A stretch of 32,000 bases of DNA, taken from the NCBI GenBank assembly GCA_963779145.1, contig CAVZXJ010000044.1:25799-57798 (forward strand), in the 5' to 3' direction. Below, piece by piece: positions 3,001-12,000 of this stretch; positions within the stretch are counted from its first letter, which is position 1, and every line of letters starts with the position of its first letter. The DNA is from an uncultured Alphaproteobacteria bacterium. GTDB taxonomy: Bacteria; Pseudomonadota; Alphaproteobacteria; Rhizobiales; Aestuariivirgaceae. The position numbers were made by a program.

Positions 3001-6000
3001 TCAATCTGGCCACGGCTCAGGTATCGACGGGTTTTGCATCTGGAGACATCCTGACTGGTATTGAGAATGTGTATGGCACCAGTTTTGCTGATACGCTGAC
3101 AGGTGATGCCAATGCGAACTTCCTGCATGGCAGAGGTGGTGGCAATGACACGCTTGTTGGTGGAGCCGGTGACGACTCGCTCTATGGTGGATTTTCTGCG
3201 AGCGTAGACAACGACACGCTGATTGGCGGTGCTGGTGCTGACATATTGTATGGTGGTGGCGGTGTTGACGTTGCGAGCTATGTGGGCTCGACGGCGGGGG
3301 TTACTATTGACCTTCGTGTGAAGACGGCACAGGTCTCAGGTGGTGATGGCGCTGGAGACATTATCGATACCGTTGAGAACCTGACGGGTTCCGCCCTTAA
3401 CGACGTGCTGACAGGCGATACTGGTGTCAACGTGATTGATGGCGGTGCTGGCGATGATAGGATCTCGGGTGCTTATGGTGCAGACACCCTGATTGGTGGT
3501 GCTGGGGTCGATACAGTTGTTTACGTCGATGCGGCAACCGTGAACCTGGCTTTGGCCACAGCACAGGTTGCCGGTCAGACGCAGACGCTTTCGGGTTTTG
3601 AGAACATCACGGGCTCGAGCAGCAGCGACACGTTGACGGGTGATGCGAATGCCAATGTGATTGACGGTGGTGACGGTTTTGATACGATTGTTGGCGGTGC
3701 AGGGGCAGATACGCTAATCGGCGGACTTGGTGGTGACACCGTGAGCTATGCGGCTTCTGCTGCGGGCGTGACGGTCAATCTCAACCTTCTAACGGCTCAG
3801 GTCTCAACGGGTGATGCGTCTGGCGACATTCTGTCAGGCTTTGAGAGCATCACCGGCACAGCTCTTAATGACACACTGACGGGTGATGCCAACGCCAATA
3901 CACTTAATGGTGGAGCGGGCAACAATACGTTGAATGGCAATGATGGCAATGATATATTGATTGGTGGGGTAGGCATAGATACCTTGTCTGGTGATGGTGG
4001 CAACGACACGCTTCGCGGTGGAACCGAGGCCGACAATCTTATTGGCGGCGCTGGAGATGACTATCTGGTAGGAGGTGCGGGATCTGACGCCTTAACCGGA
4101 GGAACCGGGTTTGACCTTGCCTACTATGGTGATTCAACAGTTGCTGTTACTGTTGACTTGAGCTTGTCTACAGCTCAGATTTCCACGGGCGATGCCTCGG
4201 GCGACATTCTTTCAGCCATTGAGAGCGTGACGGGCTCTGGTTTCAACGATCTTCTAACGGGCGATGCTAATGCCAATATTCTGGATGGTGGTTATGGTAA
4301 CGACACTCTGAAGGGCGGTGCAGGAAACGACACTTTGATTGGAGGAATTGGTACTGACACGCTCTTTGGGGGTGAAGGAATAGATACAGCAAACTATTCT
4401 GGCTCTACTGCAGGTGTTACTGTCAATCTCAATCTCTCAGTTGCTCAGATTTCAAATGGTGATGCGTCTGGCGATATTTTCCTTGGCGTTGAAAACGTCC
4501 TTGGTTCGACTTATGCCGACACCTTAGTTGGCGATGAGAATGACAACGTTTTAGATGCTGGGGCTGGAGATGACGTTCTAGAAGGTGGGGTTGGCTCAGA
4601 CACCATCATAGGTGGGTTGGGAAATGATACGGTAACCTATCTTAGATCGACGGATGCAGTCACGATTGATTTAAACATCTCTACTTTTCAGCTTTCTGGT
4701 GGACACGCGTCAGGTGACATGATCTCAGGGGTGGAGAAAGTTGTTGGCAGTCAATTCAATGACAAGCTGGTCGGTAATAACAGCAACAACGTACTTACAG
4801 GCGGACTTGGGGCCGATTTTCTTACCGGGGGCGCCGGAAACGACACATTTGTTTTTGCAACAGGATTCGGCAAGGATAAAATCTCTGATGTCCAAGCAGG
4901 AAATGGTGCAACTGATGTTTTGCAGCTTTCACTTGGAACAGCTTTCGATACTTTTGCTGAAGTGATGGCAGTCTCTACCCAAGTCGGAGCGGATACAGTT
5001 ATAACCATCAGCGCCAATGACACCATCACGCTGACAGGACTGCTCAAGACTTCGCTCGTGGCGGATGATTTCATATTTGTCTAGCGGCAATCATGGTCGG
5101 TGTTTCATTCCCCCACCTTCTTTTCCAATGCATGTGCCTCAGGAACACCCATTGCTGTCAGCCAATTGAGGATTTGATTGGTTTCTGTGATGTGACTTTT
5201 GGCGACCTCAAGAATACCAACTTTGTCGTTCAAGGCAGTTTGAAGCCAGCCAACCAAACGCTTGTCCAAGCCATGTTCAATGTAGAGTTGGCGATTTTCA
5301 GGTTGTCTTTGTTTCCATTTGTGCGCGCTTGCCAAGAAGAAGGGCAACAGCACTGCTCGTGGTAAAATTTCCAGCAAGTTCATAGTCAAAATAGAAGTAA
5401 AAGGCACAGAACCTTCTTCGATCAATTTAGTCAGCTGGGGTAAAAATGGTTCTATGCTTTCGAGGGCCTTCGAATAGAGATAGCATGACGAACCACCAAA
5501 TGGTCCATGTTGGTTGAAGAATAAGACTGCGAATGCTGGGCCAAGGTTCATTTCGATTGTCAGCGCAGTTTCGTCACGTGCGTTTTTCCAGCCGTACGAA
5601 TACCTCAAACGACCACTAACAATTGCTCTAATTTTCAGAGCAACGTCCAAGTTCAATCCTTTGCCATTGAAATAGCTTGTGTCTGCCGCACGAACTATGA
5701 TTGTCGCAACATCATAAAAGGCCTCGTCAGGAACATCAACAAGCCGATTAAGAATGGCCTCAAATTCATTCAAATCAACAATCGGCCAAACCTCAACGAG
5801 CAGCCCAAAATATACCTCATTCCACTCACGACCTCCTCGGTCGTCTGTGCTGGCCTGCTGTTCAAGTCCGCCGCCATTTGCAGCCCATGTCCAATCGTCG
5901 TAGCTCTTGACAAAGCCCGTTGGCCAGGCACGGTCTGTTTCATTGATTTCGCGCGTCAATTCAGTGACCCAACGAACTGCTGAATGAACCATAAGTTCTT

Positions 6001-9000: not shown

Positions 9001-12000
9001 TCTCTAACCGTCGTCTGTTTGCTGACGTCCTCAAAGAAGTCCAAGCTGTCGACGAACAGAACGGCGCCTCCACTGCTTGCCAAATCTCTCAGAAAATCTT
9101 CCGGCGACATGTCGATCCGGAATTGCGCTTTGAAGGCTGGCCATCCTCCACCAACAGTTCGATTGGGAGAAAGCACAATGGCGCGAGATTGCTGGCATGC
9201 TTCTTCAATTTGAATACGCATAAGTCCGGACTTTCCAACTCCGGCGCTTCCGCGGACTTCAATGAAGCGACCTTTTTCGCGCGCATTCCGAATGCGGTCT
9301 GAGATTGTCAATCTTGCCAACTCCACTCCACCAATTTTCTTGGGAAAGTCGTGAACAGCCAGCTCGGCAACCTCAGCCAATGTATGGCGGGCAAACTGAG
9401 TGGAATACGATCCGGCAAGCCGCAACGACTTTACAGTTGCCACGTATTCCAATAGCTTTTGGGTGTCCAAACTCCCTCCTACGCTCGCACTGGCGACTGC
9501 ATGTTCGACAAGCGCACTCCAAAGCGCATTTGCTTTCGACTTTTCGTCTGGATGAAGAAGTGTGCGACATCTTTCACGGGCCAATTCTTCAGAAGCTGAC
9601 TCAGCGGACTCGAAGTCAAAGACCAGTATTTGAAATCGCCTCAGAATTTGCCAGATGGTTTCATCATTCGAATCAATCTCACCAAGTGATAGATGTGTTC
9701 GAATTGTTTCGACGAAAATGCGCATTGATGCATTGCCAACGCCGCTTCGATTGACGCGTTCCATCAATAGTTTTGAAGACTCAACTGCCTTGGCCCAGTT
9801 GATGATATCTTGGTATGGCCCATAAGCCTTCGCAGAGCTTCTCGCAGTTGCCACGGCAAACTGATGGCGTGTGCCGGATAGGTCCAGATTGTGAAACGCT
9901 TTTCCAATTTGCGTGATAACGTCGCAAAACACGTGGTCGCTAGGTGAAAAACTAATGGAACGCTTTACCTGAATTTCGAGAATAGATGTTTTACCAGAGT
10001 TCAATTGTCCGCGAACAACTACGTCATCCAGAGGATGACCTTCAGCCGCACGCTGTAGTGAAACACCGCTGATCTGCATTCCGGGAAAACCCCGAGGGTC
10101 TGACTTTTCCAACATAGTGAGCAGATAATGCGCGCCGACTTGCCCTTCGAAATGGGAGCCCGCAGGTCCCGATGAGGTGGGACTCGAAAATTTCTGGTCA
10201 GGCATGGGTTTCTCGTAACCTAATGAATCATTGGGGCCTCGATTCCGATAGTCAGCGACGAAACGTCATCTTAAGCAATAGTGAAATTTTCCGTTTCAGG
10301 CGATTTCAGAGCTGGACTTCGAAGCGAAAGGAAGCCTTGCTGTTGAAGGCCCGCATAAGATTGCGGGCTTTGGGTGGTACCGGGGCCAATTGTGATGTTC
10401 CGGTAAAGGAGAACCATCCATGACAAAATCGTCTAAGAAGCAGTCGAAATCAACCAAGTCCGACAAGATCACTGCCCTCTTGTTGCGGAGCATCGGCGCG
10501 ACACTGGCCGAGCTTGCAAGATGTGCCGACTGGCAGCCACACAGCGTGCGTGGCTTCATGTCTGGTACTTTGAAAAAGAAGCTTGGTTTTGAAGTCACCA
10601 GCAAACGCGAGGAAGGCAAATCCCGTAGATACTTCATTGTGCGGGGTGCAAAATGAGCACATTGCCAGACATCAACACGTTGTCCGGACTGCCTTCGGCT
10701 GATCATGAAGTTCTCTGGCTAACCCATCTCGGTGGTGCAGTGCCAGAGCATCTACCGAAATTCCTGCTGGCAAGGTTGCTGGCCTATCGGATTCAGGTGC
10801 AGCAGCAGGGAGGGCTCTCCAAGGTAGCCACGCGCTTCCTCGATCAGATCGCAAACGACCTAGACGCCTACGCACCCCGTTTCTGGTGACTGCGATCCGC
10901 TTCAACGCGACGCTTCGCACCCAATATGAGCAACAAATGAGGTCACAAACGTTTTCAAGCTCGTGAACTCCGACATATCCACATGTCGAAGGACGCGACG
11001 TACTCCGTAAACAACTGGAATGAACTGCGGAGACAAAAGCCAAAGGGCTGAGTTAACGCAGGCAAGTCGATCCGCCGCGAATTGGTCGAGGGTGATTTCG
11101 AGGCACCCCTCAAATCGTTGGTGCCGTCTCGTGAGCTATTCGATCTCGCCTCGGCGATTTTCCGCGATCTCTGGGATCAACGCGTCGAATCGTCAGGCAC
11201 GCAGAAGAAGCACATGGCGGCGGAGATTTCCCAGATCGACCGCAAGGTCGAGCAACGGGTCGAACGTATGCTCTCCGCAGAGAACGACACAATAGTCCGC
11301 GTCTATGAAAATCAGAATGGAAAGTTGGAATCTCAGAAGCACGTTCTCAACGAAAAGATCGCATCGCTTTGACATTCAAAGCTTTGAGCGAGTTATTGGA
11401 CGATAAAGAAGAACTGGCGCGCCGGACAGGATGAAACTGGGCACTCTTATGTTATTGTTTGTACTATGTAATTTTGGAGTCCTGCAAAACGTCATCATCG
11501 CAAGCCCCGGGCGAAAGTTCAACTGATATATTACCGTTGATGCCGATGGGGAGTGAGCTCCCCCGATAGTGGGAGCCTAATCCGCGCCGCTTTCTTCTCG
11601 GCGCGCAAAGACATCTTTGCCAACGTCGCCCTCATCGCCGCAGGACGGGTAACGGCTTTCATATGGAGTTCGGCATGCCGGACCTAATCGATGATCTTGG
11701 CATTGCTGCCCTCAACGCCGATACTGCGTGCGAAGTCTGGACAGCGGCACGGGACGAACACATGAGTGCTCGTGCGCAAATTGGAATTCTCAGTTGGCAG
11801 GCCTTGCAAGTGCTTCAAATACACGAAGCCGCCCGCTGATACTGACCTTCACTTCTTGCGCTCCAGAACTGGCAGAAAGTTTTCCGCATACTCGCAGTGA
11901 ACTATTGTCTGTGTCGATAATAGCCTTTGCTCTGTTCTGACTATCAAGTATCGAAACGTCCATTTTTGCAGTGCCGGGAAGTAGAATTGCCCCGTTTTCG

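Follow-up and report, generated by a model that had tools for sequence, protein, structure and literature searches.

What is encoded by the giant gene at positions 5105–10205 of a 32,000-nucleotide stretch of DNA from an uncultured Alphaproteobacteria bacterium of the family Aestuariivirgaceae (contig CAVZXJ010000044.1, positions 25,799–57,798, assembly GCA_963779145.1), and can this gene still function? A first-pass annotation of this stretch, which we refer to at its full length as the window, had described the gene as a defense-like NTPase with a nuclease-like N-terminus, a NACHT/STAND-like P-loop and a C-terminal region of more than 1200 residues without recognizable motifs. The best reading of the locus is a decaying single-gene Avs4-type abortive-infection receptor in a degraded island of low GC content. 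It is probable that this gene is a frameshift-inactivated, single-gene antiviral STAND NTPase (Avs, a bacterial NLR-like receptor) with Avs4 as the nearest characterized relative, and that the intact protein would act much as Avs4 does.

First, we confirmed that the region is a single gene. It runs on the minus strand over about 1700 codons and ends with a stop codon at 5105–5107. Listing of open reading frames (ORFs) splits it into three overlapping minus-strand ORFs at 8553–10205 (550 aa), 7348–8613 and 5105–7417, and in a three-frame translation of 5105–10205 the opening of each frame coincides with the close of the previous one. Two joins, both –1, fuse the three ORFs to a protein of 1700 residues without internal stop; they fall at LLAQGHP/AQAVARNLF and at GDADP/NDDSIELEF. 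Since one nucleotide has to be read twice at each junction, the gene must contain two single-base deletions. An alignment of 14 sequences shows no gap at either junction, and residues H473, P474 and A475 at the first junction are invariant in it, which argues that the frame correction is right. The homologues aligned to the corrected protein carry a single ORF each. The first-pass annotation was therefore correct to treat this stretch as one real feature, and the parts of the gene are the following.

5105–10205, minus strand: the whole Avs4-like STAND gene, interrupted twice; collinear from end to end in alignments with 13 and 64 homologues of 1700–1720 aa.
9321–10205, minus strand: N-terminal putative effector domain, residues 1–295, with a predicted PD-(D/E)xK-like core (residues ~17–120) and a helical sub-domain (residues ~130–290), from AlphaFold2 (AF2) and Foldseek.
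10119–10151, minus strand: helix-1 motif FEGQVGAHYLL; E20 and Q22 in at least 90% of the sequences; Y27, L28 and L29 invariant.
10014–10034, minus strand: PLDDVVV, the "PD" motif, residues 58–64, at the start of strand 2; D60 and D61 invariant.
9963–9980, minus strand: LEIQVK, the (E)xQxK motif, residues 76–81, in strand 3; E77, Q79 and K81.
9228–9251, minus strand: Walker A motif (P-loop) GSAGVGKS, residues 319–326; G319, G322, V323, G324, K325 and S326 invariant.
9027–9059, minus strand: Walker B strand LFVDSLDFFED, residues 383–393; D386 and D389; model strand E381–385.
8946–8963, minus strand: sensor-1 strand VIVTAR, residues 415–420; T418 and R420 invariant; model strand E413–420.
8783–8785, minus strand: frameshift 1, a 1-nt deletion at the P474/A475 codons, CCG[G]CA.
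8482–8508, minus strand: winged-helix motif FRHHVLRDW, residues 567–575, the STAND histidine motif FxHxxxxE(F/Y/W); F567, H569, V571, R573 and W575 invariant.
7435–8784, minus strand: middle piece, residues 475–924, with the helical and winged-helix portion of the NTPase module and the beginning of the sensor, inside the span matched by the Avs4 model (residues 294–1083).
7434–7436, minus strand: frameshift 2, a 1-nt deletion at the P924/N925 codons, CCA[A]AT.
5108–7435, minus strand: C-terminal piece, residues 925–1700, the remainder of the α-helical sensor by AF2 and Foldseek against 8dgf.

The central part of this protein is a STAND-type P-loop NTPase. Conserved among 14 to 65 homologues are the motif GSAGVGKS, the aspartates D386 and D389, and the pair T418/R420, and the AF2 model places them on the strands where they are expected. 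Behind the nucleotide-binding domain follow the FRHHVLRDW motif, a β-hairpin and helix at residues 557–583 of the model, and then about 1100 residues of helical sensor. The alignment used for motif conservation contains 65 sequences, with homologues 44–54% identical to the query across this region. In this alignment, G319, G322–S326, D386, T418, R420, D60, D61, Q79 and K81 are invariant, and at least 90% of the sequences share E20, E77 and D389. The five motifs quoted in the first-pass annotation (GSAGVGKS, LFVDSLDFFED, VIVTAR, PLDDVVV and LEIQVK) are all present where they had been placed, and with this conservation they are not chance occurrences. The STAND half of the proposed NACHT/STAND label also holds. 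The NACHT half is not supported: the window ORF has no match to the NACHT profile (PF05729) at E ≤ 1, and 14 full-length family members have none at E ≤ 0.1, so that by profile the protein is not a NACHT protein. Other Pfam matches to the three ORF pieces and the 14 members were limited to P-loop families below threshold (AAA_16, AAA_30, nSTAND5 and nSTAND1).

The sole significant named relative of the protein is Avs4. The NCBIfam model NF041815 (Avs4) aligns with residues 294–1083 over profile positions 187–988 of 1579 (E = 3.7e-15, 54.3 bits), and it matches 12 of the 14 family members as well. The Avs4 model of PADLOC covers the same residues 294–1083 with E = 1.4e-11, and a profile built from the family finds EcAvs4 in the PDB (8dgf_A, E = 2.5e-7). 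The more than 1200 residues at the C-terminus, in which the first-pass annotation had recognized no motif, are indeed empty at the level of Pfam (zero families); the Avs4 models of NCBIfam and PADLOC and the comparison of structures nevertheless place them. An AF2 model of residues 501–1700 (pLDDT 86.6, predicted TM-score (pTM) 0.76) was matched by Foldseek to chains B and A of the Avs4–portal structure 8DGF with E-values of 7e-18 and 5e-17 over about 1300 columns (TM-score 0.61 by query and 0.50 by target). The remaining matches were generic α-solenoids with TM-scores of at most 0.26. On the basis of this modeled fold and the length of the match we assign an Avs4-type sensor fold to the C-terminal 1200 residues. 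The suggestion that the sensor region may be novel has to be dropped. The family of ~1700-residue proteins is a divergent, distant relative of Avs4, which is its closest characterized relative, and represents a known kind of defense system rather than a new one. The survey of NCBI proteins by Lee et al. (2026) comprises 589 STAND clades and 684 sensor clusters, and very probably already includes this family.

We then turned to the question as to how an intact member of this family may work. In the literature, Avs4 is triggered by the phage portal: binding of the target leads to oligomerization of the STAND module, and Mrr or Cap4 nuclease domains brought together in a tetramer degrade DNA. Since the homology extends over both the NTPase and the entire sensor fold, an Avs4-like mechanism is most likely for intact members. 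By analogy, the C-terminal α-helical sensor would bind a conserved structural protein of the phage, the portal being the likeliest. Binding would lift autoinhibition and allow the STAND NTPase to bind ATP and to form a tetramer. Oligomerization would in turn join the N-terminal PD-(D/E)xK-like domains into active nuclease dimers, and degradation of DNA by these dimers would abort the infection. The portal trigger, oligomerization, nuclease activity and the antiphage phenotype are thus all carried over from characterized Avs proteins.

Two points weigh against too literal a transfer. The equivalog cut-off of NF041815 is 1500 bits; the 54.3 bits of the query fall far short of it and indicate significant homology, not equivalog-level membership. 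Identity to EcAvs4 is about 12%, and together with the low score of the hidden Markov model (HMM) this means that the portal trigger cannot be transferred with confidence. The functional claims for the family are predictions from sequence, models and analogy. We give the portal a chance slightly short of even as the trigger of intact members; at this level of identity the trigger may differ from that of Avs4. In an alternative reading, the receptor keeps the Avs4 fold but responds to some other phage protein instead of the portal, or to more than one trigger; it would then belong to a functionally distinct Avs family that shares its ancestry with Avs4. According to Lee et al. (2026), the Avs families defined by distinct sensor clusters recognize 13 different proteins of phages, and Avs11, no relative of Avs4, has also come to sense the portal. 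KpAvs2 has also been reported to recognize several different phage proteins. In contrast, the fold match covers essentially the whole sensor, and conservation of the sensor across phyla is high (mean column identity 57–62%), which fits a single conserved target fold. Balancing these observations, we regard a trigger other than the portal as possible rather than probable.

The second question about mechanism concerns the N-terminal domain. An AF2 model of residues 1–474 (pLDDT 86, pTM 0.84) shows a helix (17–33), three strands (44–50, 62–67 and 73–81), a helix (91–104) and a further strand (114–120). According to the model and the alignment, E20 lies in the first helix, D60 and D61 open the second strand, and E77, Q79 and K81 lie in the third. 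An α-β-β-β-α-β core with acidic and ExQxK residues at these positions is the arrangement of PD-(D/E)xK restriction endonucleases. Foldseek aligned the same model best with SeAvs3 (E = 8e-10, 532 columns), across both the N-terminal and the nucleotide-binding domain, and with EcAvs4 at E = 1.6e-8 over about 500 columns; alignments of this length to Avs3 and Avs4 must include the effector domain. A third match was LmuA, an effector with a Cap4 nuclease domain (9hr5_A, E = 1.3e-5, 342 columns, target TM-score 0.40). The proposal of a nuclease-like N-terminus is thereby supported at the level of modeled fold and topology, and we hold with good confidence that the domain has a PD-(D/E)xK-like nuclease fold. 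Catalytic activity of the domain as a nuclease is a prediction.

Profile searches do not add to this assignment, and they count against it. Neither Pfam nor NCBIfam contains a model that matches the N-terminal domain, and a PDB sequence-profile search with this domain alone returned nothing relevant. Cap4/DUF4297, toward which the first-pass annotation had pointed, gave no match in the profile scans; among 13 N-terminal domains, neither Cap4/DUF4297 nor LmuA profiles of Pfam or PADLOC matched at E ≤ 10, and the PADLOC Mrr models matched none. The nuclease assignment consequently depends on the topology of the model, on conserved residues and on Foldseek alignments that span more than one domain. 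These same results lend some support to a different role for the domain, as another type of effector, an adaptor or an oligomerization module; killing or signaling by the family would then proceed in another way. It was a model of two domains, and not the isolated domain, that produced the Foldseek evidence, and the domain is shared with the N-terminus of an accessory protein of type VIII retrons, listed by Mestre et al. as a putative serine esterase. On the other hand, a core in which helix 1 carries an invariant acidic residue, strand 2 starts with DD and strand 3 contains ExQxK is that of PD-(D/E)xK enzymes, and the best structural matches are Avs3 and Avs4, both of which bear nucleases, and LmuA. 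We consider a non-nuclease function to be unlikely. Whatever its chemistry, the domain is not confined to this family. Two other defense proteins, PADLOC PDC-M54A and the retron type VIII accessory protein, align collinearly with it at their N-termini. A profile of the domain recovers 2541 representative clusters (E ≤ 1e-3) from 1.84 billion proteins, which identifies it as a widespread module that still lacks a domain model. This effector module is the one feature of the family that deserves follow-up. The two doubts may also apply together: the family would then form a functionally distinct Avs lineage, in which an Avs4-fold sensor has been retargeted to another phage protein and is combined with an unmodeled N-terminal effector, possibly not a canonical DNA nuclease. 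This combination seems rather unlikely to us.

The preferred reading, an Avs4-like receptor with a nuclease-type effector, describes the intact protein. The copy in the window is most likely a frameshift-inactivated and probably dead pseudogene that does not work in this genome. The two frame breaks occur within 5.1 kb, compared to none in the ~22 kb of the other giant ORFs of the window (5.0, 7.5 and 9.7 kb). The window copy also departs from the family at 24 of 230 near-invariant sites, whereas 117 homologues depart at 3.3 sites on average and at 13 at most; this count is inflated because the window copy represents the most isolated lineage. The STAND stretch is compositionally foreign, with GC contents at third codon positions (GC3) of 0.45–0.48 vs 0.60–0.63 in the neighboring Tc toxin genes. 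We infer from these observations that the deletions are real mutations and not assembly errors.

Two findings speak against real mutations. Both deletions sit in short homopolymers (GG and AAA), and 11 of 80 homologue loci, many of them from long-read metagenome-assembled genomes, match in more than one frame. For these reasons we reserve a small share of our confidence for the alternative that the gene is intact in the organism, that the missing nucleotides are sequencing or assembly errors at short homopolymers, and that the locus encodes a working Avs4-like defense gene. Retention of every catalytic-type residue would agree with this alternative, and database fragments such as P0137 also look frameshifted. 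But if errors were spread uniformly, two in 5.1 kb against none in ~22 kb would be improbable, deletions that are not errors have cut short the adjacent DUF2924, recombinase and cation-transporter genes, and the excess of substitutions at near-invariant sites adds to the evidence for decay. The first-pass annotation had proposed a candidate defense system riding on an adjacent decayed element. The low-GC, degraded setting with DUF3489, truncated DUF2924 and tRNA-Arg agrees with this proposal; the notion of a working system does not, in view of the probable pseudogene. As such, the window copy matters mainly as an example of defense-gene decay in a degraded island beside toxin loci.

The family is widespread. 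When 5.8 billion proteins were searched with the frame-corrected sequence, 723 matches were obtained. The best 120 of these are nearly all about 1700–1720 aa long, are annotated as hypothetical, and cover 97–100% of the query with 38–49% identity. Scanning one genome per species identified 119 relatives, none of which exceeds roughly 50% identity with the window copy. They come from Alpha-, Beta- and Gammaproteobacteria, Acidobacteriota, Nitrospirota, Planctomycetota, Actinomycetota, Myxococcota, Thermodesulfobacteriota and Spirochaetia. This patchy distribution over more than eight phyla is typical for genes that move horizontally. No relatives were found among the viral contigs of IMG/VR, so carriage by phages or prophages is not supported, a result that also weighs against the preferred reading. 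When plasmids were searched at the DNA level with the gene and with its flank, the matches were all short and weak, and none was a close orthologue. As to size, at least 119 species-level genomes and 360 sequence clusters (50% identity) fall into the family, from rhizobia, Nitrospira, Acidobacteriota and others. Widespread "hypothetical proteins" can now be placed in the Avs4 branch of bacterial NLR-like immune receptors, and trigger screens in hosts outside the enterobacteria could reasonably start from the intact members.

The gene stands alone, because all-vs-all BLAST of 1184 flanking ORFs from 86 loci revealed no conserved neighbor; the largest cluster occurs in 10 loci at variable distance and on either strand. 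The single-gene architecture of effector, NTPase and sensor that had been proposed is consistent with this result. A conserved partner gene had been considered in view of the listing of PDC-M54 as a multi-gene candidate and of a DUF433/DUF5615 pair upstream of two homologues, and was ruled out by the same clustering. These two homologues come from Xanthobacter (L002, pair at 8981–10014) and Methylorubrum (L009, pair at 8978–10011). In both, the last gene of the pair overlaps the start of the STAND gene by ~10 nt, and an unannotated ORF of ~270–300 aa lies 3' of the homologue; the DUF433/DUF5615 arrangement looks like a shared cassette of these two lineages only. The Methylorubrum locus contains in addition a 564-aa ORF without Pfam match (6872–8566, minus strand), 1.4 kb upstream of the homologue, with an opposite-strand tblastn match to the query (E < 1e-10). 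This ORF may be a fragment of a second, inverted paralogue.

The surroundings of the relatives support an association with defense and mobile genes in a qualitative sense. Relatives often reside in integrative and conjugative elements (ICEs) or plasmids, or beside defense genes. Six to seven of nine distinct homologue loci with Pfam-annotated contexts fit such a setting, as judged qualitatively: an ICE with a TIR_2 neighbor (L001); ICE-encoded type IV secretion system (T4SS) genes with toxin–antitoxins and AbiEi (L002); a type I restriction-modification (R-M) system with Abi_C, a caspase-like protein, pYEATS and IS21 (L003); AbiEii (L005); an SspBCD-like cluster with T4SS genes (L010); and integrases with HicAB (L009). 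Two loci with purely housekeeping surroundings (L007 and L008) do not fit. A scan of the 132 immediate neighbors at 33 loci with PADLOC and Pfam gave matches to the MADS, GajA (best E = 3.7e-252), PtuA and AriA models of PADLOC; as the last three cross-match the same ABC-type ATPases, of the Gabija, Septu or PARIS type, these correspond to few distinct proteins. Pfam identified integrases, AAA_21 ATPases, ResIII, BrxL, conjugation proteins and transposases. Further giant ORFs of 1500–1800 aa adjoin homologues in four loci (L055, 2233–7647 and 15153–20162; L027, 2828–7849; L025, 4936–9696; L002, 4303–8838). They are not close paralogues of the STAND gene and may encode other large defense proteins; MADS components are among the matched neighbors. 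Proximity to tRNA genes, in contrast, is not a family trait. Only 11 of 54 homologue loci have a tRNA or tmRNA gene at a distance of 10 kb or less, so of the islands near tRNAs and recombinases that had been anticipated, the defense and mobile contexts stand and the typical tRNA association is unsupported. A non-defense STAND protein, that is a signaling or regulatory ATPase with incidental neighborhood links, is highly improbable: defense and non-defense STAND clades are interspersed (Lee et al. 2026), two of the nine contexts are housekeeping and tRNAs are not enriched nearby, but the protein has an effector-like N-terminus, no DNA-binding or regulatory output domain and specific homology to Avs4, and the family combines a patchy cross-phylum distribution with neighbors such as R-M, Abi, TIR and Ssp-like genes, BrxL, MADS, ATPases matching GajA/PtuA/AriA models, and ICE or plasmid cargo.

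Two features mark the stretch upstream of the STAND gene in the window.

10420–10889, plus strand: apparent remnant of an integrative-element module, with an intact DUF3489 ORF (10420–10656, 84 bits) and a truncated DUF2924 ORF (10653–10889).
13374–13450, minus strand: tRNA-Arg(CCG), with its 3' end facing the low-GC stretch that holds the STAND gene.

The DUF2924 ORF encodes 78 aa that cover 66 of 135 profile positions with 29.5 bits, compared to a cut-off of 31.2, and no recombinase domain was detected beside DUF3489 and DUF2924. The three intact genes of a DUF3489–DUF2924–serine recombinase module are thus not present, and the tRNA-Arg gene is 2.5 kb away. These observations fit a decayed remnant of an integrative module. 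The 3' half of tRNA-Arg(CCG) forms a 47-nt direct repeat (13372–13418 and 13639–13685, 96% identical). The second copy lies 189 nt upstream of the 5' end of the tRNA gene, on the side opposite to that of the usual displaced attachment-site copy, and the repeat could be left over from a second copy of the tRNA or from a previous integration event. Positions 11567–11761 share ~71% identity with a portion of cation-transporter genes annotated on plasmids of Mesorhizobium and Rhizobium and contain no intact ORF; this gene fragment adds to the decayed picture between the STAND gene and the tRNA. An intact ORF of 323 aa with a signal-peptide-like N-terminus and no Pfam match (11790–12761, minus strand) is located inside the same degraded stretch. 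Scans for promoters and terminators remained at chance level.

On the other side, the STAND gene converges, across a gap of 20 bp, with a gene for a giant RTX calcium-binding repeat protein (1–5084, plus strand) with 31 HemolysinCabind stretches. This gene contains 1110-nt tandem units, and the 300-nt segments at four unit starts (1, 1111, 2221 and 3331) are 100% identical; such perfect long repeats could also reflect collapse or expansion during assembly. Beyond the tRNA lies a Tc (ABC) toxin complex locus on the plus strand. It encodes a TcB/TcC-like protein of 2503 aa (14130–21641; SpvB, TcdB_mid, FG-GAP, RHS) and a TcA-like protein of more than 3242 aa (22272–32000; VRP1, ABC_toxin_N, Neuraminidase, TcA_TcB_BD), which begins with four N-terminal peptidoglycan-binding domains and runs past the end of the window.

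How does this family compare with known systems? EcAvs4 (8DGF) is likewise a single polypeptide of about 1600–1700 aa in which a STAND NTPase and a very large α-helical sensor follow an N-terminal effector; this effector is an Mrr-type PD-(D/E)xK nuclease in EcAvs4 and a putative nuclease in the family. The N-terminal module of the family is longer by ~100 aa, placing the P-loop at residue 319 instead of ~233, and Mrr and Cap4 HMMs do not detect it. In contrast to EcAvs4, the window copy has its reading frame broken by two 1-nt deletions. SeAvs3 (8DGC) and SeAvs7, both Avs proteins with a Cap4 nuclease, are expected to share the activation logic of target binding, tetramerization and nuclease assembly. 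The sensor of the family is neither Avs3-like nor Avs7-like, and its N-terminus has no Cap4/DUF4297 HMM match. PDC-M54A (PADLOC models PDLC04700 and PDLC04702, ~1620–1660 positions) is of similar length and collinear over the N-terminal domain (profile positions 17–257) and the NTPase region (178–638). Its two models match 9 and 5 of the 14 family members with best E-values of 2e-16 and 1.7e-18; these scores are weak for proteins of this size, and the window copy itself is unmatched. PDC-M54 is moreover listed as a multi-gene candidate, unlike the family described here, which has no conserved partner gene. LmuA from Lamassu (9HR5), a nuclease activated by tetramerization, is similar in structure, without a match at the level of sequence, and acts as a separate subunit under an SMC-like sensor instead of a STAND module. 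Finally, the retron type VIII accessory protein (DUF626_VIII in PADLOC) aligns through its N-terminal ~190 positions with the N-terminal domain of 10 of 13 family members at a best E-value of 3.5e-6, though not with that of the window copy, but this putative serine esterase comprises only 474 positions, has neither STAND nor sensor, and is associated with a reverse transcriptase.

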